From Mobula birostris (lineage: Eukaryota): a stretch of DNA of 64,000 nucleotides. The translations under genes and the position numbers were made by a program. Shown here piece by piece: positions 13,151 through 63,559 of the stretch (position 1 is the stretch's first letter; every line of letters starts with the position of its first letter). Under the pieces are notes generated by a model, which was not told where the DNA came from, did no database searches, and saw nothing but the letters and a program-made list of their open reading frames with translations. The stretch is taken from NCBI RefSeq assembly GCF_030028105.1, contig NC_092370.1, forward strand, positions 94,446,969 to 94,510,968, in the 5' to 3' direction.

Positions 13151-13715
13151 TGTAACACGCTGTAAGGTTTCACTGCTAAATGTAGTGGCCTCTCTGTAGC
13201 AGCAATGTTTGGGTTATGACTAGAGATAATGGTGCTTTGGAATGTGGGGACTATCCAATGAGAGAAATTTTGTTCTTTTTTGTTCTTTTTTGTGAGAAGA
13301 GAGAGTTTTGCGGTCTTTTGCCAGGTAGAGATGAGGAGAGAAGCCGCGAATGAAGAGAGTTGGTAGACCACTGGACGGAGTGGGCTTGGAGTGAGGGTTC
13401 GAAGGTCAGCGACGATCGAAGAAGGTCGATGGTGGACAGACGGCTTATCAGGGAGCTCCAACATTGTGCAATAGACTGTTTCATGAGAATGGGCCCTTTT
13501 CCTTTTTTTGTTTTCTTTACCAACCATATAGTCAAATTAAGAATTATAAAGCTCAATCGTTTAATCACATGTTGTGTACTATTTGTTATTTCATGGCACC
13601 GATTTGTAACAGGGGACACATCGTACAGCATCCACCCAAACGAGATTCCTTAAGTTTAGCCGGGCCAGAGGCTATCACCCCCTATATTAAGTCACTAGCC
13701 GAAGCGAGAATTACA
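13151..13715 (+). repeat. 5' LTR of the Gypsy element
   Basis: Starts TGTAAC, ends TTACA; diverged direct repeat of 19509-20061. Confidence 0.92.
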
Positions 13716-13719
13716 ATTC

Positions 13720-13733
13720 TGGGGGCTCGTCCG
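13720..13733 (+). promoter_or_regulatory. Primer-binding site complementary to tRNA-Pro
   Basis: tgggggctcgtccg just after the 5' LTR matches the classic tRNA-Pro PBS TGGGGGCTCGTCCGGGAT. Confidence 0.85.
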
Positions 13734-16524
13734 TGATTGATTCTGGCGGATGCTATGTGATTAACCGGCGCATCGAACCTGTGGGATAGATATCTGTACT
13801 CCAGATGAATCGTTAATTCGCCTGTTAAATAATGTTAAAGTTGCAATTGTGGGTGGAGGTTTGATAAAACGGTTGGCTCAGCTCTCGTTTTAACGCAGAC
13901 CAGCGCTGAGGTAGTGGTAGCTGGTGGTGGAGGTTTCAAAGACAGGGCTCTAACATTTCTGAGGAGTGAGGGGAAAGAGTCGTTGGATTTGGGATGTCTA
14001 ATTAGTCCATGTCCCCCTGGTGAAGAGTGAGAATTCTGGGGTAGTATCCGTCCTTACCTCTCTGGCGAATAAATGGAAAACTCAGATTCAAAGTCCCAGC
14101 TATGGTAGGCTCCGCCTATTCTCTGGAATAACGCCCACCCCTAACGGGGAGGAGGAGTATGAGACTTGGGCAGAGTGGACCTCTCAGTTGTTAGATGAGT
14201 GGCAGTGTTCTGATGATGAAAAGCAACAGAGATTGGTTGAGAGTTTAAATGGGCGGGCTGCTGACGTTGTGACAGCCTTCAGGTTAAAATATCCCCTAGC
14301 AACCTGTGAGCACTGGAAAGCTCTTTTGGCCCAACAGGAAGCCCAATGGAGCTCATGGTGGGGTTCCAGAACATGCGTCAGGAGAAGGGGGAGAAGCTTT
14401 CTGCTTTTATTTTTCGGCTAGAGAAGCAGCTAAATTGCTTGCAGCACAGAGGGGTCATTCAGGCGGCTGAGGTGGATCAGTTAAGAGTGGACCAGATAGC
14501 CAGGGGTGTCCAGTCCCATGACCTGATTGCTTGGGATCTCCGACAATCTCATAAGATGCACCCCCCTCCTTCTTTTGTTGAGCTGATCAGAGAGGTACAG
14601 GAAGAGGGGAACGCCGCGGCGGCGTGGGAGGACTCTGTCAGCAGGGTACAGTCCCTGGTAGTGGTCCCCTGCGGTGATAGCCTACCCCGGGGAGCGGTAG
14701 AGGAGACTGTGACAGAGTTGAGAACGGAGATATGTCAGCTGTTATCAGCGGGTGTGACCCCCCCCCCATATGATGGAGCTGATGGGGGGGGGTGGATCCC
14801 CCAAGGGGACAAACAACGTGGAGAGCTGCTGGCAGCAGGTGTCACGCCAGATGGAGAGTGAGCCCCTGGGTACTTAAGCAGAGGAAGTCCTTGGGAAAAC
14901 AGAGGAGACCCAGTGAGGGAACAGCCTGGTGTCCCTGGTGGAACAATGTACCAAGGAACCCCTGAAAGCAAAAGGCCCAATTCCTGAAGGCTTAGTGGGT
15001 CCATGCTCCAGTGTGTTGCTACAGATAGAGGGTATTTATGCTAAAGCCATACTCGACACTGGGTCGCAGGTCACGTTGTTGTACTGTTTGTTTTACAACT
15101 GGTATTTGAAGCATTTACCCTGGGAACATTGTCTGCGCACTCGGGGTTTCGAGCTGCTTTTGAGGAAGTGCGTGGCTGCATTAGGCTAGATACTGAATTT
15201 AGACGAGGGTCTGTGTGGTTCACCCAGTCAAAGCCAATGGTAGTACGGCCCGGGGAAGTAGCGAGATAGATGGGGACCCTCAAATTTCCTGCAAGCCTGA
15301 GAGCAAGGCCCTCTTAGTGGATACTCTGAAAGACCATGAGGATGAGTCAGGATTTCCTGCTGGTGTACTGGTGAGGCCTGAATTGCAGAAGCCTTCAATT
15401 GTACAGGCAAGCAGGATGGCAGTGATTGTCAGGAACACTATGAAGAGGGAGGTCACCTTCAAGCCGAGGATGCCCCTGGTGCTTCTGTTCCCAGTAATGG
15501 TAATGTCTAGTGTCCCTGTGAGACATGCCGGGGAGAAACTATTGGAAAAAGGGGGAAAGTTGACTGAGTCATTCAACTTCAGGGACTCCCCGGTTCCTCT
15601 GGGTTGGAAGAGGAGGTTGGTAGAGAAGATTTTGAAACTGGAAGGTGTCTCTTCCACTGACGAGTTTGATGTTGGTTGTTCCAAGAGCATGTGTCACACT
15701 ATCTGGGTGACCGAGGACAGAGGTCTCGGCAACTGGCTCCTGCAGAGGCGGAGGATGTTCGGCAGCACTTGTGAAAGTTGAAGGAAGCTGGGATCATCAC
15801 TGAGTCCTGAAGCCCCTATGCGTCCCCAGTAGTACTGGCCAGAAAGAAGAATGGGAATGTATGGATGTGTGTTCGCACCGTCCCTGACCAGTATACTGTC
15901 CCGAGGATTGAAGATGCACTGGCCTGCCTGAGTGGTGCGAAGTGGTTCAGTGTGCTGGACTTGAGGAGTGGATATTACCAGATCCCCATGAGTGAGGCCA
16001 ACAAAGAGAAAATGGTATTTATATGTCCCCTGGGATTTTTCCAGTTTGAAAGGACGCCCTAGGGCATCTCAGGAGCTCCTGCAAACTTCCAGCGGTTCAT
16101 GGAGAAGACGGTGGGGGATATGAACATGCTTGAGGTATTGATGTATCTGGATGACCTCATAGTGTTCGGATCCACCTTGGAAGAACATGAAGTGAGGCTG
16201 CTGAAGGTGCTGGGCTGCCTGAAAGCTGAAGGGTTAAAACTTTCCCTTGACAAGTGCCAGTTCTGCCAAACGTCTGTTAGCTATGTTGGGCACATAGTCT
16301 CACGGAATGGAGTACCTACATTTTCGGCTAAGATAGAGGTGGTAACCACATGGCCAAGACTCCAGACTGTGAGTGCTCTGAGCTTGTTCCTCGGGTTCTA
16401 TGGTTACTACGGAGGTTTGTGAAAGGCTACATGAAAGTGAGTCACCCATTGAATCAGCTTCTGTGTGGTTACCCTCCCTTGGGGAAGAAAGGGAGGGGGG
16501 GATAAAGGACAGAAGGGTGGAGAA

Positions 16525-17730
16525 CACTGATCCCTCTAAGCTGTGCACATGTGTGTGTGCACTCACATTTTTCAACCAGTGCACAAAGGAAATTAATGTG
16601 CTTATAAAAGGTTAGTTACCTAAAATAATGTAGTAATTAATAATTATACTTATTGAAAATAATCTTTTAGCTACCTGTTTCTGTTAACTAGTTAGTCAGT
16701 TTTTCAAATACCACAACGCACGTCATTAATTTATGTCACCTCACCATTCCTGTTCCAGTTTGTACAGCTGCCTCACGGCGGCAGCCACATTTGGCGGACA
16801 ATGTTCATATAGTAAAGTTTACAAAGATCTGTTTCAAATCTTGTAGATAGCTTACTAAGTTTTTATTGAAAAAATATTGATTCACTATGTCAAATTCAAA
16901 AGAAGTGAAGGGCGTGAAGCGCAAAAGAATTGCAAATTTGATTTGCGCGAGGCAAAATTAACAAGATAAGAAAGCAGTATCTGGGAGACAATGTTTTGTG
17001 GAGTGACAAAGTTAAAGTTTTGCTAAGCCAACAACGTGAAGAAAATGTCACAGTAGATACAAGTTTGCTGTTGACTTTTATAAATAGGCTTTGTGTTCAT
17101 TTAGAAGAAAGGTTTCCTGAAGGTGAGGTACAAGAATGGTCAGCTTTTGATTTCTCCACAATTGCAGAACGTGACTTCACATTTGGCGATGAACAAGTTA
17201 ATGCCTTATGTCTAAAATATCATGATTTTCTAGCTGAAAATACTGTAATAGTTAGACAGTTTAATGGTTTCAAATTTCCCTTGCAAGAAAAAATTAAATC
17301 CAAACTGATTTCAAACTTTACTCAAGTGGTGGCATTTGTACTTCAAAATGAACAGTTTTGCGACCCTGCACAGTTGATGGACATTGGGGGAACCTTTCTT
17401 GTGTCTAGTGCAAACTGTGAGCGAGGTTTTAGCCTAATGAATCAACTCAAAAACAAGCTGAGAAACTGTTTAGGTGAATGTCATTTGGATATGTTAATGA
17501 GAATCAAAAGCTATCAATTGGATGGAAGTTCTGTTAGTCTAGATAGAGTTTACAAAGAATAAGTAAATTCCAAAGACAGGAGAGAGAAAAAATAACTGAG
17601 TGACTTAAATATGTATGTTATTTTGTTGTTATTCTGTGCAGTTTTATGTCAAGTATTTTGTAAACCTACATAAACTGTGTCATGTGTGCATTCAGTGCGC
17701 ACATACTTTTGTCACAGGAAAAAAATCATC
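16525..17730 (+). mobile_element. hAT DNA transposon fragment (ZNF862/hATC-like transposase C-terminus) nested in the Gypsy pol
   Basis: Abrupt AT-rich block starting cactgatccctctaag (TIR-like); ORF 16996-17562 ends SSANCERGFSLMNQLKNKLRNCLGECHLDMLMRIK, the hAT dimerisation motif; right boundary approximate. Confidence 0.8.
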
Positions 17731-19508
17731 ACCGAGATGATCTGGGCATCAGTACCACTTGGGCAGCAGTTGAAAAGGGAGACATGGCTCAGGCAGAGAA
17801 GGTGAAACATGCGTCGGTCCCTCCATTACTGCAAGAATGGCCTAGGTTGGAGTTGAAGAACTAGATCTTGTACTGGGTCACATCACCTCCGGACTGACCT
17901 TGGCGTTGCTAGCTGGTTTTGCCCGAGAAGTATTGGAGGATTGCGTTGAAGTCACTTCATGATGATTCTGGACATTTGGGAGTGGAAAAGACCTATGGAT
18001 TGTTCAGGGACCTTTTTTACTGGCCCCGAATGAAATTGGAGGTCGAAGGATACTGCAAGTCAGGCATTCGATGCATACAGCGGAAGGCACTGCTGACGCA
18101 GGCGAGCCTTTGTCCCACCTGCAGAGTGTGGGTCCTCTGGACCTGGTGTGTATGGATTTCCTGTCAATAGAACCTGATGCCAGCAACACGGCGAATGTCT
18201 TAGTCATCACGGACCACTACACCAGATATGCTCAGGCTTTTCCTACCAAGGACCAGAGGGTGTCTACAGTGGCCAAAGTGTTATGGGAGAAGTATTTCAT
18301 CTCTTATGGCCTCTCCAGACAGATACATAGTGATCAGGGACGGGATTTTGAGAGCAGACTCATCCATGAGTTACTGGGCATGCTTGGAGTCAAGAAGTCG
18401 AGGACCACGCACTATCACCTGCAGGGTGATTCCCCGCCAGAGAGGTTTAATTGGACCTTGTTAGACATGCATCTGGTTCACAGTTATAACTGCACACAAA
18501 ATGAAGCTACTGGGTGCTCGCCATATTATCTGATGTTTGGGCACGAGGCGAGGTTACCTATTGGCCTTTGTTTTGGGACTGACGAGGGTGACTTACCCCT
18601 GAAAACTTATCTGAAGTTTGTGTCTGACATGAGAAGAGAGCTGAAAAGGGCTTATGAATTAGCTGGGTTCGCGGCTGCCAAGCAGAATCAAGGGAATAAG
18701 AGGAGGAATGATCAAAAGGTGAGGTCCTCCCAACTCCTGCCGGGAGACAAGAGTCCTCATAAGCTGGCGACTGCTGGGCAGCTACACCCTATGTGGTGGA
18801 GAGTCAGATGCCAAACCTACCAGTTTTCCGGGTGAAACCAAAGGAGGGGAATGGACCTCTCAAGATTCTCCATCGCAACCACCAGTTGCTGTGGGTCAAG
18901 AGGCGCAAGTAGACCCAGAGCCCAACTTGGAGCCCACACCTCGTAAGAGGACTCTGCAGAAATGGGGGGTGACTACCGGGCCCCCAACAGGTGAGGTTAG
19001 GCTGGCCCCAACCCCTGAGAGGAATACTGATTCGGAAGATGAGGACCTGGATGTGTGGTATATACTGCCTTTCGCTAACTCCCCATTGATTGGGGAAGAG
19101 ACTCCCGGTCCTTCTCCCATTGAGTCAGATGAAGTGGGGGTGGGGGCTATCTGTGGGCAGCCTGGGTTACAGTGGGACTCTGCAGGGTTTGATCACGGAA
19201 CAAAGGGCTTTGAGTTGCAGGTTGGCACGAATGATAGATCAGGGGAGGCCCCGCCAGGTAGACCAGAAGTATCCACAGTAGTGTCTGAACCTGAAGAGAT
19301 AGATGAAGGGGTGCGGAGGTCTCAGAGAATTAGGAGACCACCGGATAGGCTGGCCTATGTAGCAACAGGGGAACAGAGTGTAACCCCTACCATTTTCAGG
19401 AGCCATGTCACTGCCTTTTACACCTGGATTGGGCTTTGTGTTTTGCAGGAAGGGTTGGTGAATTATCTCAACATCATGAGGACATGACTAAATTTGGTGG
19501 GGGTAGAG

Positions 19509-20061
19509 TGTAACATGCTGTAAGATTTCACTGCGAATGTAATGGACTCTCTGTAGCAGCAATGTTTGGGTTATGACTAGAGATAACGGGGCTTTGGCAT
19601 GTGGGGACTATCCAATGAGAGAAATATTGTTCTTTCTTGTGGTTCTGGAAGAGAGAGTTTCGCGGTCTTTTGTTGGGGAGAGATGAGGAGAGAAGACGCG
19701 AGTGGAAAGAGTTGGTGGACCGTCGGACGGAGTGGGCATGGAGCGAGTGTCCGAAGGTCAGCAACGATCGGAGGAGGTCGCTGGTGGACAAACGGCTTAT
19801 CAGTGAGTTCCAACATTGTGCAATAGGCTGTTTCATGAGAATGGGCCCTTTTTTTGTTTTCTTTGCTAACCATATCGTCAAATTAAGAATTATAAAGCTC
19901 AATCATTTAATCACATATTGTGTACTGTTTGTTATTTTATGGTACTGATTTGCAACAGGGGACACATCACACAGCATCCACCAAAATGAGATTTCTTAAG
20001 TTTGGCCGGGCCAGGGGCTATCATCCCCTATATTAAGCTGTTAGCCAAAGCGAGATTTACA
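19509..20061 (+). repeat. 3' LTR of the Gypsy element
   Basis: Preceded by the purine-rich tract ggtgggggtagag; TG...CA termini; followed by TSD AGTA. Confidence 0.92.
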
Positions 20062-20329
20062 AGTAGAACACAATTTAACCTACTCCAAGAACAACTGAAT
20101 GCTTCCCTCCCACACAGCCTTCCAGCTTTCTTTCACCCATGTGCCTATCCAAGAGTTTCTTTAATGTGCCTCTACCACCAACCTTGGCAGCACATTCCAC
20201 GCACCATCATTCTCTGTGAAGAAAACCTATCTCTGACATCCTCCCCATACTTTCTTCCAATCACCTTGAAATTAAGCCTTCTTGTATTAGCTATTTCCTG
20301 CTGGATTGAAAAATATCTGCCTCTTTCAA

Positions 20330-30941: not shown

Positions 30942-33263
30942 TCTACGTTGTTCAAACAAACTGGCTTGGTGCTTCTCAATGGAGTCTTTCCTAGTTGATT
31001 TGAATTGGGAAACTTTTGAGCCCAGTGATTAGTTTGCAATGCACTATTGCCAGACATTACAGAAGAGGCAACAGCTCCAATGTGGCTTATGAGGGTATTT
31101 TTCAGGCTATCAGAATCATAAGGTCTTAGAGCTTGAAAAGAGGCCCTTCAGCCTACCAAGGCCCTGCTAAACATCCATTTGTTCTAATCTACTTTTACTC
31201 ATGCCACACTCTCTCCTCACACCCACACATGAGGGGCAATTTAACCCTACTCAGTCTGTGTTTATCCAAATACTTTTATATACAATCCCTTAAAACGCCT
31301 TCCAACAATGTATCCACTATTGATGTCAGGCTCACTGGCCTATAATTTCGCAGCCTGGAGCCTTTCTTAAACAATGAAACAACATTTGCTATCCTCCAAA
31401 CCTCCAGCAAACTTGCAGGGTAAATTCTATCATATTATAATCACCCTCTCCTAAGGGTTCCTTTACCTTAAGCTGTTTACTCAAATTTGGTTTATTGCAC
31501 AGCATGAAATCCAGAATTGCCATTTCCCTAGTGAGAGCCATCTAGTAGGGATACTGTACATACATTCCACATAACAATGTGTAGATCAACCGGAAAAATC
31601 AACTCCTGTGACAACTTGATTTTTTTCAGTCTATTTGCATATTGAAGTCCAACATTACCATTTTAACATTGTCTTTCTTTCTTCCTTTTTTAATCTCTTG
31701 TTGTTATGTGCACCTCACATTCTGGCTTCTATACACTGTATATAAATCCCACCAGGTTCTTTTGAGACAAGGAGGTGAGACAACTTTTTGAGATTAATAT
31801 AGGAAGTCAAGGCTCAAGGACTTGAAAGTAATATTGCAAAAAAAGCCACATAAACTCACACACAGTTGGAAGATACAGATTTGAAGTAATTGGTTAAGAG
31901 CCAGAGAGGAGGTGAAAGTTCTTTTACCCACTACACCCAGAATGCTTTACATGAAAGTCTGTTGTCACATGCTCATATAAGGACTTAGGGTCAACAAATG
32001 GTTTTTTATGTAAATAACTTTATTTTGTAATATTTCTGAATAAAGTATATTTTTGGGAAAAATAGCTCCTTATGCAGCTCTCTCTAAAGTTTGACTAAAC
32101 TTTCATAAAATCCCTTGAGGTAACCACTGCATAAAGATGCCACCTAAATTGGATGTGTTTCTTTAGCTGTTGTGGAAGTATGAGTTGGTAATGACTTTCA
32201 AAAGGAAATGAGGTTAGTGGTAAAGGGGAGACAATTGCAAAGAACAAGCAAGTGGAAATACTTAAGACAGTTCTTTCATAGAAGTCACAAGACATAACAA
32301 ACTGAATGCCCTTCTGTACTGCATTCTAAAGCAATTAGACTATCTGCTTAAGTAATAGCAACTTTACCCTTTTCATGAGGAATACACATGGACTGCAATG
32401 CATATTTTATATCTTTTCATCAGACATGCTGGATTTAAATCCAGTTCTCAAAATTGGGAATGCTGGAATCCAGTCTCCATAAATCTTCCCATTGAGCTGC
32501 CATTTAATATTAAATCTGGAACAATCAGCCCAAGAGCAGCTGGTAAAGTTTGCTGCTGTTGGTTTAATTGTTCTGTACTTATTATGTTCATGGAGAGTGA
32601 TTAACTGAAAAAGCCAATACACGGCTTCACTCATGTCTTTGTGTTGAACAAACCCCTCTAATTTGGCATTTAATTAATGATGTACTTATAAGGCAATAAT
32701 GGTGGCTTGTGCATTATATAGAAATAGGGGAGCAGTGTGAGGACAGTATTAAGTAGTGAGAGGTTTACTCTGCAGTTACTTGTGCTCTACCTGACCTAAG
32801 AAATATAGATATCACTTGCTGTTCAGGGGATACTGATTTTTTTTTTCTCCAAAAATACTTTATTCAGAAGTATTACAAAATAAAGTTATTTACATACAAG
32901 AAAAAAACATTTGTTGACTCTGAGTCCTTATTCAATAAAGGTATTTACAATAAAATTATGTGTTGGCTCTCTGTTCACTTACAAATGAAATATGTTTACA
33001 ATAAACCGTTCATTTACTCTCAACCTGTTCAGGGGCTACTGATGAACTTGCTCTACACAAAATTTTAACAAAATGAAGGACGAAAAGGAGATAGCAGATC
33101 CCAGCTGTACACAATTCCTTATAAGGTAGCGATATCACCTCTCCATTGCAATTGAAGCTGAATACATCATGTTGTCAAGACCTTACAAGGCATGAATGGT
33201 CACAAAAATCTAATACATCATAATGGATACCTCATATATTTAAGCTGTGAAAGATATTAAATA

Positions 33264-33326: not shown

Positions 33327-33491
33327 ATGAAGCGCTCTAAGCCAGTTAAGAAGACAGAAACTTGTTATTTACGGAGGCGGCACTTACGACGATTATGTCT
33401 AACCAAGAGGGACAGGTCTAAAATATATCGAAGAAGATGCCACATTAGAAGATTGCCAAAAAGAAGAAGAAGAGGGAGAAGAAGATGTTAA
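33327..33491 (+). CDS. Scylliorhinine Z1-like Cys/Arg-rich protamine, 54 aa: [54 protein letters not shown]
   Basis: Hand-translated, below the ORF-track cut-off; ATG...TAA, intronless; [10 protein letters not shown]...[19 protein letters not shown] pattern matches catshark protamine Z1 as I recall it; AATAAA at 33621. Confidence 0.88.
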
Positions 33492-33620
33492 GAATTGCTT
33501 GTCAGTCTTCATCCAACAAGAACCATTCCTAATGAGTTTTCTCAAGAAACGTTCACTGTTTGTGATGAAGTACTCCCTGAATTCAATACTCCTGCTGCTT
33601 CTTTCACTGAAGTCATTTTG

Positions 33621-33626
33621 AATAAA
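33621..33626 (+). terminator. Poly(A) signal of the Z1-like gene
   Basis: AATAAA 130 bp after the stop, preceded by TTCACTGA...TTG. Confidence 0.7.
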
Positions 33627-43220: not shown

Positions 43221-44672
43221 CCAGGTAAATTTGAGGGCAGGGTGGAAATTGGAGGCAAAGTGGATGAAGTCAATGAGTTCAGCATGGGTGCAGGAAGCAG
43301 CACCAATGCAGTCATTGGTGAAAAAAAAAATAAGGAATTATAATAATGGAGTAGAATAATTGTGCCGTTTTCTGGGAATGTTGCTGTGATCCTTATTGTT
43401 TTTACTTTATATTATTGATTGATTTCAGGACAGCAGCTCTGAAATAATGACACAAATACATAGAATTTGCTGAGAAAATAACAGATTTAAGCTGTAAGGA
43501 TATGTCTGGAATGACCTAGCCATTTATGATTAGAAAGAAATACTTTTATGATGTTCATATCTCCATAAATTAACCTGCCTTGTGACTTTTGCACAAGAAA
43601 TTGCTGAATTTGCAGAAAGATGGGGTTGGTATTTAACAGAGCCAGTATCCCCTTGATTGCATGTTCCTTCAGTGCTAGCCATTATTTCCAGTTCAGAAAC
43701 AGAACAAATAAAACTATGGTATCTTGGTCCAGCAGTTAGTAAATCAAATTTAAAAGCTTTATATTATTCTTACTTTTCTTTTGTCTTCTTTGCTCTCTCC
43801 TTTATTACAACTTTTTTTTCTCTTGGTGAAACTTAACTTCTCCAATCAATGGTACAGGGATTGTGCATATAGACTCATTAGCAACCCAGCAGCGATGCAG
43901 TGACAGAGCACACACCACCAGGTTCAGGAACAATTACCCTACAACTACCAGGCTCCTGAATCAGCGTGAATAACTTCATCTGTGCACCATAACTATGAAC
44001 TGATTCTACACACAAACTCTTCAAGAACTCTTTACAGCTCATGTTCTCAGTAATATTTCTTATTTACACAAATAATTATCTTTAGCACATTGTTTGTTTG
44101 TCAGTGTACATTTATGAATTTTTTTTCATAAATTCTGTTGTATTTCTTTATTTTCCTGTAAATGCCTGCAAAAAAACGGATCTTAAGATAGTATTTGGTA
44201 ATATATACGTACTTTGATAAATTTTACTTTGACATTGAGGTTCAGATACAGTTAATATCCTACAACAATCAGGCTCTTGAACCGACATGGATAACTTCAG
44301 CAACCACTACTTTGAATGGATTCTAGAACCTTCTTGCTGACTCACTTTCAAGGATTCTGGAACTCTTGCTCTCAGCATTAGGTTGTTTTGCACCGTTTGA
44401 TTTCTTTTGCACGTTGGTTATTTGTCAGTTTTTAACTGTTTATGTATAATTTTCAGTAAATTCAACAGTATTCATTTTATTCCTGTAAATGCCAGCAAGA
44501 AAATGAATCTTAAGGTAGTAGTATATGGTAACATGTATGTACTTTGATAATAAGTTTACTTTGAACTCCTACATGACCATCATGATGACATGACAATAGG
44601 GCAGGATGCTGAAAAGTCTATAAAACTAGAGACTGAACACTTCCAAAGCGGTCAGTGGCTGAAGGCTGAAGC

Positions 44673-44789
44673 ATGAAGAGGTGTGTGCGCAAACGCAGGC
44701 GCAGGCGTAGAAATGGCAAGAAACCTTGCAAACGAAAATCAAGTACTATTGTCAGAGCACATCTTGTTCATCGGCGAAGAGCTGGGTGA
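44673..44789 (+). CDS. Truncated duplicate of the Z2-like protamine, 38 aa: MKRCVRKRRRRRRNGKKPCKRKSSTIVRAHLVHRRRAG (possible pseudogene)
   Basis: 44579-44783 reads identical to 46003-46207 (promoter, TATA, 5' UTR, 37 codons), then GGG TGA from unrelated flank; lacks the native 3' UTR. Confidence 0.7.
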   Translation: MKRCVRKRRRRRRNGKKPCKRKSSTIVRAHLVHRRRAG

Positions 44790-46042
44790 TTGAAATTCAG
44801 GTAAAATTAACTAGTTTGATGTCATTTTTTTGAATTGCTGTTCTTATTAGTGCTAATGTGCTTTAGCAAAGGAAATTTGCCATCTTTCTCTGGACAAGCC
44901 TTTATGTGAAATCTTTAATAACTCATATTTACAGTGCATGGCCCCATAAAAAAGCCCAGCTAGCCATTCAGTTCAAGGGCAATAAATGCAGGCCAGTCAT
45001 GGGATAATTGGCAAAAAAACAATTAACCCTATTTCTTTAACTGATACAATCATTCACCATTTGGTCCTAGATTTCCAACTGCACTCACTATGCTGCTAGC
45101 ATCACACACATTAGTAATGGATATTCACGCTGAAAGTTGTGGAGAATAATCTAACTCTTGGTTCTCCACTCAAGGAGACTTGGTGCCATTCCTGAACTTG
45201 GCTGAATAGAACAACTGGATAAATGTTGCCAGGCCATATTGAAGTAACACCTTAGTGACTTGCTTTGTACTTTGACACCTACTTCAATAATATTGACTGA
45301 GAATAGCAGAGTTGGAATTTTAATACCTAAAAAATACTCTCCATTGGATGGAAACAAATGTTTCATGCATTGACTTCAAATAGTTTAGCTTAAATGTAGA
45401 AAACACTAAAGCTGGCCAACAAGATTTTGCTGAACCATATATAGTGTTATACTATATGATAATCAAGAGAAATTCATGATCAAATTGTACAAGCAATTGT
45501 TTGGGGAGACCAGACAGGTACCAACAGAGCAAAGAGAAGCTTCCAAAGACTTTGATTTAAACTTAAGAGGGACAGAGGTTCTTTACTTCGAGTGAAAGGT
45601 ATGTTGTGGGAAAACTCAATTGTCTCTCGGTAAATTTAGAATTATCAAGTTAAATTAAATCCAATCAGCCCTGGCAGATAGGACACAAATTTGATTGTGT
45701 TCAACATTTCACTGGTGAGAATATATACATGGGAACCCTTTGTAAGTTTTAACCCATTGTTGTGTTCCAGGATAATTGTGATCTGAATAGAAGTAGCTTT
45801 GCACGAAATACCTTAAAATCAGTTATCTGCTAAACATATACAATCCCAAAACAACTTGGCCCAAGTGCCAAATATAGACAAATACCTTAAAAGGCAGTTT
45901 GGGAAAAAAATACCTTAATAGGCAATTATATGTTGAACATACACAGCCCAAAAAAAATTTGTGACAAAATGCCAAATATGGAAAGTAGCTGAAACCTGTA
46001 AAATCATGATGACATGACAATAGGGCAGGATGCTGAAAAGTC

Positions 46043-46049
46043 TATAAAA
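46043..46049 (+). promoter_or_regulatory. TATA box of the Z2-like gene
   Basis: TATAAAA 54 bp upstream of the ATG, with TGATGACATGACA (CRE half-site-like) about 35 bp further upstream. Confidence 0.7.
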
Positions 46050-46096
46050 CTAGAGACTGAACACTTCCAAAGCGGTCAGTGGCTGAAGGCTGAAGC

Positions 46097-46228
46097 ATGA
46101 AGAGGTGTGTGCGCAAACGCAGGCGCAGGCGTAGAAATGGCAAGAAACCTTGCAAACGAAAATCAAGTACTATTGTCAGAGCACATCTTGTTCATCGGCG
46201 AAGAGCTTCAAGACGTTGTCATCGGTAA
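46097..46228 (+). CDS. Scylliorhinine Z2-like protamine, 43 aa: MKRCVRKRRRRRRNGKKPCKRKSSTIVRAHLVHRRRASRRCHR
   Basis: Hand-translated, absent from the ORF track; MK.C.RKRRRRRR...CK..SSTIVRAHLVHRR.A.RRC matches catshark protamine Z2 as I recall it; TATA upstream, AATAAA at 46370. Confidence 0.9.
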   Translation: MKRCVRKRRRRRRNGKKPCKRKSSTIVRAHLVHRRRASRRCHR

Positions 46229-46369
46229 GAAGCTATGACAGATCAAAGAAAAGAACCATGTTTTGAGCTATTCGAGTACTAAAGAAGATGTGCACAAGGC
46301 AGACTGGATGAGGAAACTGCTTGAATTGAAACTTCGTTCTTCACACCATGTTCACTGATTCAAATTGAA

Positions 46370-46375
46370 AATAAA
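46370..46375 (+). terminator. Poly(A) signal of the Z2-like gene
   Basis: AATAAA 142 bp after the stop, followed by a motif shared with the S1-like gene. Confidence 0.75.
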
Positions 46376-47167
46376 AGCCTACAAGTACTGAGACTTGGAA
46401 AAAATATTTTGTTTGACTCAAGTTTTTTCAAATATAATTGCAGAATTATTTCATTACATGGTCAAGGGTGCTTGAATTGAAAGCGAAAGTGGTGCAAATG
46501 AACCTCCTATAGATGTCAGTCAAGAGAACATTGAAACACTCATTCTGTTGGGAGGGCATTCCAGGACTTTGTAGATACTGTTTCTATGCATCTGCTAGTC
46601 TATGACTAGATGGTAGAGATAATGTATGATCGGTAGGATTCACCATTCTGTTGGTTGAGACTGGTGTAAGTGCAGGGGGATTTGATGAGTGAAAGACAGG
46701 GAGAAGGTGTGAAAGACATCCCAAAGCAGGCCCATCATCAACCATTGTGCTGGTGTGGTCATTGCCATACTAAAGGAAATGTAAGATTTACTTTGCAGTC
46801 AAACCACAATGTAATAATGAACAAGAGAAAATCTGCAGAAGCTAGAAATCCAAGCAACACACACCAAATGCTGGAGGAACTCAACGGGCCAGGCAGCATG
46901 TATGGAAAAGAACACAGTCAATGTTTTGGGACGAGATCCATCACCACTCCTGATGAAGGGTTGACTGTACTCTTTTCCATAGATACAGCCTGGCCTGCTG
47001 AGTTGGACCACAAGGCAAAGGAGCAGAATTAGGCCATCTGGCCCGTTGAGTTTGCTCTGCCATTCAGTCAAGGCTGATCCTTTTCTTTATCTCCTCCTTA
47101 ACTACTATTCCCGGCCCTCTCCCCAAAACCTTTGATGCCATGTCAAATCAAGAACCCATCAATCTCT

Positions 47168-48210
47168 TGTCATGGCTCGGTCCGTGAAGTCCGCATTCTG
47201 GTTCACGGTCTGGTCCATCGACCCTTGCTCCAGGTTTTCCTGTCTACCCTGTTTCTGTTTCTGTTGAGCACTAATTGAGGCAGCTGATTCTTGTTGGGGC
47301 TGGCTGTATAAATACCTCCAGAAACCAGGGGCATGGCTGCTGGATTGTTCTTGTCCTTACTCCTTGTATCCCTTCCCCTCTCTTCTGTTTCCTTGCCTGA
47401 AGCCCTGCCTTGTCTTGCTGGTAACTCCTGCCTCGCCTCGCCTGTAGTCTTGTCTTGGAGCCACCCTGTACCTAGCTCCCTTCCTGTCCCTTGCCTCCGT
47501 CAGGTAGGCCAGGCCGTATTGCCGTTACCCTGCAGTGGGTTCTGTCCCTTTCTGTCCCTTGCCTCCGTTGGGTAAGCCAGGCTGTGTTGCTGTTACCTAC
47601 AGTTGGTTCTGTCCCTTCCTGTCCCTTGCCTCTGTCGGATAAGCCGGGCTGTTTTGCTGTTACCCTGCGGTTGGTTCTGTCCCTTCCTGTCCCTTGCCTC
47701 CGTCGGGTAAGCCAGGCCATATTGCCCTTACCCTGTGGTGGTTTCTGTCCCTTCCTGTCCCTTGCCTCTGTCGGGTGGAGATCCGCGCCCTGCCCAGGAG
47801 GAGCTTCAAGACCCCAAGCCTCTAGCTGAGCCTCGCCTCATGCCGAGCTTCAAGACCCCAAGCCTCAAGCCTCTAGTCTCAAGTCTCTGGTCTCCAGCCT
47901 CACCTCAAGTCTCAAGCCTTACCTCGAGTCTCAAGCCTGAAGACTCCAGCCTCGTCTTGCCTGCCAGCCAAGTCACGTCCTTGCCCGGTTCTGGGGTCCG
48001 AGCCAGAGGCAAGACCCAGATTCTGGGTCCTTATACAGTCTCTGGCTTGGAGTCCAAGCCCTGGTTCCTAACTCTCTTGTCCAGTCCTGTTCCGGGTTCC
48101 CGGTTTTCATGTCCATGTCCTTACCCTCACCCTGTATCCTAGTCCTGTCCCTAGTACTTCAGTGTCTGTGTCTTGCACTTGGGTCTGTTCCCAGCCACCA
48201 CCTTATGACA
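47168..48210. mobile_element. Solo LTR, about 1.04 kb, with an internal minisatellite
   Basis: Termini TGTCAT...ATGACA; 5-bp TSD TCTCT at 47163-47167 and 48211-48215; about five copies of a ~65-bp unit at about 47478-47775. Confidence 0.8.
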
Positions 48211-62300: not shown

Positions 62301-62696
62301 TATTTTATTTATCTTATGGTACTAAGATATTTACATCTTGATGAATACAAAATATGGTTCTTCAGACCGTACACGGTACGATTACATCACTCACCAAAGG
62401 CATTACAAGTTTTGTCCATATATGGCATGACGTTGGTATAAAGACACTGAAATCCATTGTGTATTGATCAAACTCACCAATAAAATGATATGATCAATGT
62501 ATCAGTGTATTCACCTTATAAGGTGCCATTTACATCTCTATGAATACAAAATATGGCTTCAGACCAAACATGGTATGATTATGTCACTCAACAATGGTGC
62601 TTGCAGGCATTAAAAGCTGCCTACGGGAGCTAACATTCAATTGAAAATCTCTAATCAGTGAGATAGTGTACAAGACAATTTGCTAATCAAGAGGAC

Positions 62697-62963
62697 ATGA
62701 CCAAGTCACGATATCGTACCAGACGCAGCCGACCACGTAACCGATATGGTAGGCGGCTGCGTAAATCAAAGGGTCGAAGGAGAGGGCGGCGAGTCAGCCG
62801 CAGACCTCGCCATGCCTCCTACAGGAGAAAGGTACAGAAGAGTGTGCATCAAAAACGCCGCAGCAGACTCCGAGATGAAATTGAAAATTTGAAAGTAAAG
62901 AACAACAGACGTCTTAATGAATCGCTTAAGCAGCATAGAATGCCCATGAGGGTGCCTGTCTGA
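62697..62963 (+). CDS. Spermatid-specific intermediate (transition-like) basic protein S1, 88 aa
   Basis: MTKSRYRTRRSRPRNRYGRRLRKSKGRRRGRRVSRRPRH...RDEIENLKVKNNRRLNESLKQHRMPMRVPV; the N-terminal TKSRYR and C-terminal DEI.NLKVKNNRRLNESLKQHR.PMRVPV match catshark S1 as I recall it; intronless, AATAAA at 62997. Confidence 0.9.
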   Translation: MTKSRYRTRRSRPRNRYGRRLRKSKGRRRGRRVSRRPRHASYRRKVQKSVHQKRRSRLRDEIENLKVKNNRRLNESLKQHRMPMRVPV

Positions 62964-62996
62964 ATGCCATGATGAAAAGAGTATCACTTGATATTG

Positions 62997-63002
62997 AATA
63001 AA
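62997..63002 (+). terminator. Poly(A) signal of the S1-like gene
   Basis: AATAAA 34 bp after TGA. Confidence 0.75.
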
Positions 63003-63559
63003 AAACAAGTACTTGAGACTTGGAAAACAAAATCTTCCTGTTTCGTTTTACATTTTTCTCAACCTATTAGAAATAGTGAATCAAAAAATTAATCTCAAAG
63101 ACATAATTAAATCTTGTATTAAAAAGGTTCCATCTGCAAAAGAAAGCTACCCTGCAGACCTCTGGCAGTATTCAGTAGTGGTGTCTTATGGCTATGAATG
63201 ATCCTTGGTTCTGATAAATGTACTTTGCAAGAACATCAGGCTGTAGTTGTGCCCAAGTCTGAAATTTAAGGCATTTTGCAACTATGACCTTTGGAGGGTA
63301 TCAAAGTCAAAAGCAGGGTGCAATGGGTGATTGTGACATTTTGACTTATAAATAAGATTTTGGATGAGTGAGTGCCAAGAGGTCACAAGTTAACTGTGAA
63401 TGACAGATAGGGCAGGAGCAGACACAGGCAGCAAATTGGACTGGAGATGGAGGATGAAGGGAGAAGGTCTTTGATGGGTTGTCATGATTTCTTGCGATCA
63501 ATTATTTACCATTCTTTATGCCATAACAGATTGAGTGCATCATGGCATCATCAGAACCA

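Follow-up and report, generated by a model that had tools for sequence, protein, structure and literature searches.

Three short intronless genes for Arg-rich proteins lie on one strand, together within 30 kb, in the window (the whole 64-kb stretch of DNA analysed here). The first is a protamine Z1-like ORF of 54 amino acids, rich in Arg and Cys (33327–33491, + strand); the second is a protamine Z2-like, Arg-rich ORF of 43 amino acids (46097–46228, + strand); and the third, of 88 amino acids, is S1 (62697–62963, + strand). All three are followed by a canonical AAUAAA hexamer, at 33621, 46370 and 62997, respectively. A protein search with S1 gave 3 matches among 11 candidates and established full-length homology to S1 of Scyliorhinus canicula, a spermatid-specific protein (SSS1_SCYCA, P13275; 80% identity over the aligned part, E = 3.6e-31), which places the window in a cartilaginous fish. 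This direct homologue is known as a protein, and our literature search found no description of its gene cluster or cis-elements. Two Callorhinchus homologues (66% and 59% identity) place the origin of the S1 family before the split between chimaeras and sharks and rays. Both Callorhinchus proteins carry extra cysteines.

The labels Z1 and Z2 are putative and refer to the dogfish protamines of these names. Protein searches with these two ORFs returned no homologue, which for short low-complexity proteins is no sign of novelty, and the Z1-like ORF has a weak Protamine_P1 feature match (0.80). Protamines evolve fast, and their relationships, as well as their link to transition or intermediate proteins, are usually unreadable from protein sequence. 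For the three pairs of proteins, 1048, 1356 and 835 of 2000 shuffles score as well as the real sequences, and for the coding sequences 949, 336 and 939 of 1000 codon shuffles do, which bears out the original prediction that the coding regions have little in common beyond Arg richness.

The only other short Arg-rich gene sequence seen in the window is a partial copy of Z2. The partial copy (44579–44783, + strand) is an exact 205-nt match to 46003–46207, comprising the TATA box, the leader and the first 37 codons. It lies 1.4 kb upstream of Z2, directly after a repeat tail, has neither the CArG boxes nor the 3′ element described below and would encode a truncated 38-amino-acid peptide; it is either a very recent duplication or an assembly error. 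An inverted duplication of approximately 90 nt (87%; 32842–32931 and 31977–32062) lies just upstream of the Z1-like promoter.

On the opposite strand, ankyrin-repeat exons are spread over positions 170–29500 or so (at approximately 0.2, 9.4, 11.7, 21.1 and 29.4 kb) and mark a NOMPC/TRPN-like gene (best solved relative, NOMPC). Of the exons found, the one furthest upstream corresponds to NOMPC residues 194–234, and none earlier was detected above 29.6 kb; the sperm genes therefore lie either upstream of this gene or antisense in one of its early introns.

CArG boxes in the three promoters

Eight perfect CC(A/T)6GG boxes (CArG boxes) occur in the window, a total in keeping with its composition (matched by 37 of 100 shuffles), and six of them lie in the 300 nt that precede one of the three ATGs. 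Z1 has one (33117–33126, 210 nt upstream of the ATG), Z2 has three (starting at 45885, 45913 and 45972 within 45885–45981) and S1 has two (starting at 62416 and 62514 within 62416–62523). The number expected in these intervals is 0.11 (binomial P = 2.1e-10; the pattern is the best of 80 related patterns), and none of 20,000 promoter shuffles reached six boxes or gave all three genes one. Further boxes with one mismatch stand near the three promoters, and the two perfect S1 boxes have no change among the differences listed for the related DNA run X9, introduced below. These boxes, with Z1 included, are the firmest sign that all three genes are regulated as one unit; they give independent support to common regulation of all three. 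The CArG consensus is an SRF-type site, and a factor of the SRF type may be the driver of the cluster. We found no account of CArG boxes in protamine promoters, in a literature search whose coverage left most subscription papers outside.

Homology of the promoters by alignment was considered and rejected, as random segments do equally well in 123, 21 and 505 of 1000 cases for the three pairs, and the best pair (Z1–S1) is driven by a CArG box. The Z2-like ATG is preceded by TATAAA at 46043. CRE-like words (TACATCA, TGACAT, TGACG) are present in all three promoters, at 33163 and 33214 in Z1, at 46010 in Z2 and at 62382, 62428 and 62581 in S1. The S1 promoter also contains a duplication of 69–72 nt (83–84%; 62329–62400 and 62528–62597), each copy containing a CRE-like word as well as a near-CArG box.

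A near-identical stretch after the poly(A) signals of Z2 and S1

Just past AATAAA, Z2 has ACAAGTACTGAGACTTGGAAAA (46381–46402) and S1 has ACAAGTACTTGAGACTTGGAAAA (63005–63027), exactly as had been quoted for these positions and one indel apart. The match extends over 22–23 nt and has a near-identical core of 19 bases: ACAAGTACTGAGACTTGG in Z2 (46381–46398, + strand), which stands between AATAAA and the predicted cleavage site and is followed by 6 A, and ACAAGTACTTGAGACTTGG in S1 (63005–63023, + strand). It starts 5 nt after the hexamer in Z2 (hexamer at 46370) and 2 nt after it in S1 (hexamer at 62997). These are the sole two matches in the 64-kb window, and none of 100 window shuffles yields two. 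Inside the window the element is not a fragment of a common repeat, the possibility that the original prediction had set against itself: there is no third copy when up to 3 mismatches are allowed, and neither 3′ end overlaps self-repeat matches, though 27% of the window lies in self-repeats.

In an alignment of the 45 nt past the hexamer, Z2 and S1 score 41, a value equalled by 1 of 6296 control pairs drawn from 113 AATAAA sites; within the first 30 nt, 0 of 200,000 shuffles reach the observed score. Sensitive blastn of each gene with its flanks against the window lists the 22–23-nt element (E 0.002) as the only Z2–S1 similarity within approximately 500 nt of the genes. On either side of the core the similarity fades, with several indels. 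A motif around the poly(A) signal had been proposed as common to all three genes; its downstream core is present in Z2 and S1, as quoted, and absent from Z1: 3771 (Z1–S1) and 191 (Z1–Z2) of the 6296 control pairs score equally well downstream of the hexamer, and 845 of 6296 do so when the whole Z1 poly(A) site is compared.

No known motif was recognized in the element. It contains no YRS, CPE-like or UGUA motif, and no Rfam family reached its gathering score anywhere in the window; at E ≤ 10, Z2 had 0 matches and S1 had 5, all at chance level. Five metagenome matches to the hexamer plus core were rejected as relatives, because they reduce to 2 independent microbial-looking loci, approximately the number expected by chance, that have no Arg-rich ORF or CArG box.

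Upstream of the hexamer, all three genes have a second, shorter piece: TCACTGA...TTG and AATAAA (33621–33626) in Z1 (33604–33626, + strand), with no downstream core after it; TCACTGA...TTGAA and AATAAA (46370–46375) in Z2 (46352–46375, + strand); and TCACTTGA..TTG and AATAAA (62997–63002) in S1 (62984–63002, + strand), where no substitution is among the differences listed in four relatives. The proposed pattern TCACT(T)GA..TTGAA is thus found where it had been placed, but its spacing is not constant, the spacer being 7 nt in Z1, 6 nt in Z2 and 2 nt in S1. Searched with a spacer of 3–10 nt, the pattern finds only Z1 and Z2, a count matched by 6 of 100 shuffles. Control triples share a 5-mer across their three 20-nt windows in 1442 of 100,000 cases; when a shared TTG ahead of the hexamer is required as well, 2 of 100,000 shuffles qualify, under a rule that was chosen after the data had been seen. 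Among 100 control AATAAA sites, TTG is present in 2 and TCACT in 0. In this piece the Z2 sequence resembles Z1 more than S1. The MAFFT alignment misplaces the piece and was excluded from the counts. We take the upstream piece common to the three genes as probably real, if weak; the strong match joins two of them, Z2 and S1.

Two further repeats touch these 3′ regions. The word ATTGAA recurs in the transcripts, 2 times in Z2 and 3 times in S1, and an exact 14-nt direct repeat, TGCTTGAATTGAAA, flanks the Z2 poly(A) site (46318–46331 and 46469–46482); repeats of this kind are present in 4 of 213 bins.

The element at the probable mRNA end and in relatives

The geometry of both poly(A) sites would place the element near the end of the message. 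A U-rich stretch that is likely to be the downstream element of the site begins 31 nt past the hexamer in each gene, at 46406–46415 in Z2 (+ strand, 31–40 nt past the hexamer) and at 63033–63062 in S1 (+ strand, 31–60 nt past the hexamer); it is less clear in Z1. Cleavage approximately 20 nt past the hexamer is the usual geometry (PMC11535156, in excerpt).

From 24 sequencing runs listed, 4 were chosen and aligned to the S1 region (62320–63400) at 80% likeness. One of these, X9, is a DNA run with a single contig spanning 62320–63349. The other three, X16, X19 and X20, come from three other organisms in separate studies and are probable RNA, although none is recorded as RNA; they cover the S1 gene only. 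X16 has depth in the interval 63023–63059 and none at 63037, such that its cover ends at 63036 or earlier; X19 has no depth from 63023 and ends at 63022 or earlier; and X20 is a single contig that ends at 63017. The S1 core therefore lies under the probable-RNA contigs of relatives, whose cover ends between 63017 and at most 63036, that is 15 to at most 34 nt past the hexamer, with the proviso that contig ends do not fix RNA ends. Because of these cover stops, which are a weak hint by themselves, the U-rich stretches from 31 nt and the usual cut at approximately 20 nt, the S1 element is likely to form the last 20 or so nucleotides of the mRNA. For Z2 the same position is likely from geometry only. 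The terminal AAAA of the quoted motif, judging from the cover in relatives, probably falls at or beyond the cleavage site and merges with the tail. At the other end of the gene, the cover of X16 and X19 begins in the bin 62616–62652, adjoining ATTAAAA at 62609; the S1 promoter has TATAAA at 62437, after the upstream set of boxes, yet the probable-RNA cover starts only near 62620–62650.

The S1 motif is present in the orthologues of all four other organisms, with at least 1 substitution among the differences listed. Since the relatives' S1 orthologues have it, the S1 copy is, on this comparison, older than the splits of these species. Over 62982–63022 a single substitution is among the differences listed for the four organisms (X9, at 63011). 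In the same block, the length of the A run right at the hexamer changes in X9 and X20. The first part of the 3′ UTR, by contrast, has a T insertion in X16 and X20, again among the differences listed, and in X19 its first 18 nt have at least 2 substitutions and an insertion of approximately 10 nt, which show up as loose ends, the sole form in which some X19 differences are seen. A further 25 differences, approximately 20 of them in X9 and 5 in X20 and probably mostly downstream, and 19 loose ends stand outside those listed. The alignments suggest constraint on the S1 copy: the listed variable sites number 1 of 42 in the S1 3′ block against 26 of 333 in the leader and coding sequence, a difference that is not significant (Fisher p = 0.17), and in the 19-nt core 1 of 19 sites varies among the differences listed, which equals the X9 average of 5%. 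The cross-species check that had been called for thus came out in favour of the S1 copy as to its presence in four other organisms and left its constraint short of significance.

Origin and possible role of the element

We consider the best explanation to be that the 19-base stretch of Z2 and S1 is a selected, mRNA-terminal site, putatively bound by a protein that times storage and translation, in a co-regulated cluster; our confidence in this reading is a little under even. It is favoured by a match far beyond chance whose placement with respect to AATAAA and the U-rich stretch is alike in Z2 and S1, by the probable-RNA cover that stops within or just past the S1 copy, and further by the upstream piece common to the three genes and by the CArG boxes; a role in storage and translation is proposed by analogy with mammalian protamine mRNAs. 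In this mechanism, the three genes would descend from an old tandem duplication, with coding parts diverged beyond recognition. An SRF-type factor acting at the CArG boxes would switch them on together, and an RNA-binding protein of spermatids would recognize the terminal element beside the poly(A) tail. The element would have been kept by selection and would set when the message is stored and translated in spermatids, and Z1 would have retained only the upstream TCACT...TTG piece. Several findings go against this reading: Z1 is without the core despite the same programme, no known motif is present, the constraint has p = 0.17, protein and coding sequences have no detectable homology and short copying events are seen in the locus.

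The last of these points introduces the main alternative, which we regard as possible but on the unlikely side: Z2 acquired a copy of a short piece from the S1 3′ end, by DNA-templated conversion or from a reverse-transcribed S1 mRNA, and uses it only as an ordinary poly(A) cassette, in which case the match would say nothing about a special element or a common coding ancestor. The locus does contain copies of comparable kinds (the exact 205-nt copy of Z2, the 69-nt duplication in the S1 promoter and the approximately 90-nt inverted duplication near Z1), and the strong identity stops at the presumed mRNA end and gives way in Z2 to a pure run of 6 A. A single indel over 19 nt is compatible with a neutral copy, given the approximately 5% divergence of X9, the non-significant constraint is as expected of such a copy, and S1, whose orthologues have the motif, could be the donor. 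Against a copy, the similarity fades on both sides with several indels, as it would for an old block with a kept core, and the upstream piece of Z2 is nearer to Z1 than to S1. The CArG promoters point to a common history or programme of all three genes, and no target-site duplication abuts the A run of Z2, the 14-nt repeat standing at a distance (46318 and 46469).

Two further claims of the original prediction concern descent and control. Descent of the three genes from one ancestor is no more than a possible reading, because a poly(A) cassette copied from S1 to Z2 explains the match equally well and Z1 is without the core. The common control element is partly supported: the stretch is not a repeat within the window, is present in S1 orthologues and is probably inside the mRNA. 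Its function is putative and its constraint is not significant.

A more far-reaching form of the selected-element reading, which we hold to be doubtful, takes the genes as the one cluster of approximately 30 kb from which cartilaginous fishes would run their switch from histones to protamines, with a two-part code of its own, SRF-type CArG boxes at the promoters and a previously undescribed element after AAUAAA, and takes S1, Z1 and Z2 as ancient paralogues. The element, within the last 20 bases, would then be where a spermatid factor sets the order of storage and translation, and the cluster would be an independent counterpart of the mammalian PRM1–PRM2–TNP2 domain; this part is equally doubtful.

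The core might alternatively act through structure. A 5-bp CAAGU/ACUUG hairpin, as modelled, would bring a cut site 27–29 nt from the start of the hexamer near AAUAAA and so aid 3′ processing or stability, which we think improbable. Both short stretches take this hairpin as their minimum-energy fold (−4.0 and −3.4 kcal/mol), and both known differences, the Z2/S1 indel and the X9 change at 63011, lie in its loop. The fold has z values of only −0.96 and −1.28, however, stems of at least 5 bp occur in 13 of 100 control AATAAA sites and the pairing probability falls to 0.35 and 0.10 in longer context. No compensatory change was seen between the sequences compared, two of two changes in a loop of 7 of the 19 bases has a chance of 0.14, and pairing by itself would not keep the primary sequence constant. 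Distal cuts made possible by RNA structure have been described (Wu and Bartel 2017, as cited in PMC11535156 and PMC6771402, in excerpt): folded 3′ ends join the poly(A) signal to a distal cut. The likeness here is the small hairpin between the hexamer and the presumed cut; the difference is that this hairpin is weak and not significant, and that primary sequence, rather than pairing, is common to both genes.

Convergence, by which unrelated genes would have gained the same binding site for a spermatid factor, is very improbable: the absence of detectable protein and coding homology and a common selective setting agree with it, but the genes are neighbours on one strand, the 19 near-identical bases are in register with the hexamer and typical RNA-binding sites are much shorter than 19 bases. 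We give next to no credence to chance or a common repeat fragment, for although 27% of the window is in self-repeats, 0 of 200,000 shuffles reach the score, the window holds no third copy, neither 3′ end is in a self-repeat and both copies stand at the same place of two sperm genes.

If the element is selected, as we favour, it and the promoter boxes would serve as non-coding markers of ancestry and co-regulation that are testable in public shark and ray genomes, and they could act as bait for missing members of the family. Should the reading with a two-part code be true, S1, Z1 and Z2 would be paralogues traceable only through their cis-elements. The testes of sharks and rays are zoned by stage, so the timing of translation is directly testable. 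If the match is merely a copied poly(A) cassette, it would represent ordinary conversion among clustered genes, which would leave the CArG promoters as the more solid new lead.

Comparison with known systems

The translational control element (TCE) of mouse Prm1 lies just before the poly(A) signal, whereas the core described here comes after AAUAAA. It differs from the TCE also in being common to protamine-like and intermediate-protein genes, and its function is putative. Mammals store their protamine mRNAs and translate them late, by way of 3′ UTR elements (PMC3798277, PMC4672889 and PMC8799248, in excerpt), and the excerpted text of PMC3798277 describes repression of Prm1 by the TCE in its 3′ UTR. 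The likeness, by analogy with this partial account, would be that of a short element in the 3′ UTR of a protamine mRNA. Y-box proteins bind a short 3′ UTR consensus on stored spermatid mRNAs (PMC4672889, in excerpt). That consensus, [UAC][CA]CA[UC]C[ACU], has no match in the shared element or in the S1 and Z1 3′ UTRs, and its one match in the Z2 3′ UTR, at 46342, is at background frequency (3.1 per kb).

Clustering of PRM1 and PRM2 and their control by CREM are reported in the excerpted part of PMC8799248, where the PRM1–PRM2–TNP2 domain appears only as a reference title. The cluster here resembles that domain in that protamine genes are grouped with a transition-type gene, and differs in its CArG promoters, its intronless genes and its NOMPC/TRPN-like ankyrin neighbour on the opposite strand; likeness to the mammalian genes themselves is limited to the weak Protamine_P1 match of Z1. 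Our literature search found no account of the cluster or the element; the dogfish protamine cDNA and protein papers of the 1980s fall outside its coverage and may mention 3′ similarities. What emerges is a real terminal element of two genes, with a putative function, in a previously unremarked, CArG-marked cluster of genes for sperm basic proteins.

Other features of the window

Two repeat features complete the picture of the window. An LTR-retrotransposon-like element occupies 13296–20062, with terminal repeats of approximately 420 nt and broken gag/pol frames. A tandem repeat with a 68-nt unit in 4.4 copies lies at 47477–47811.
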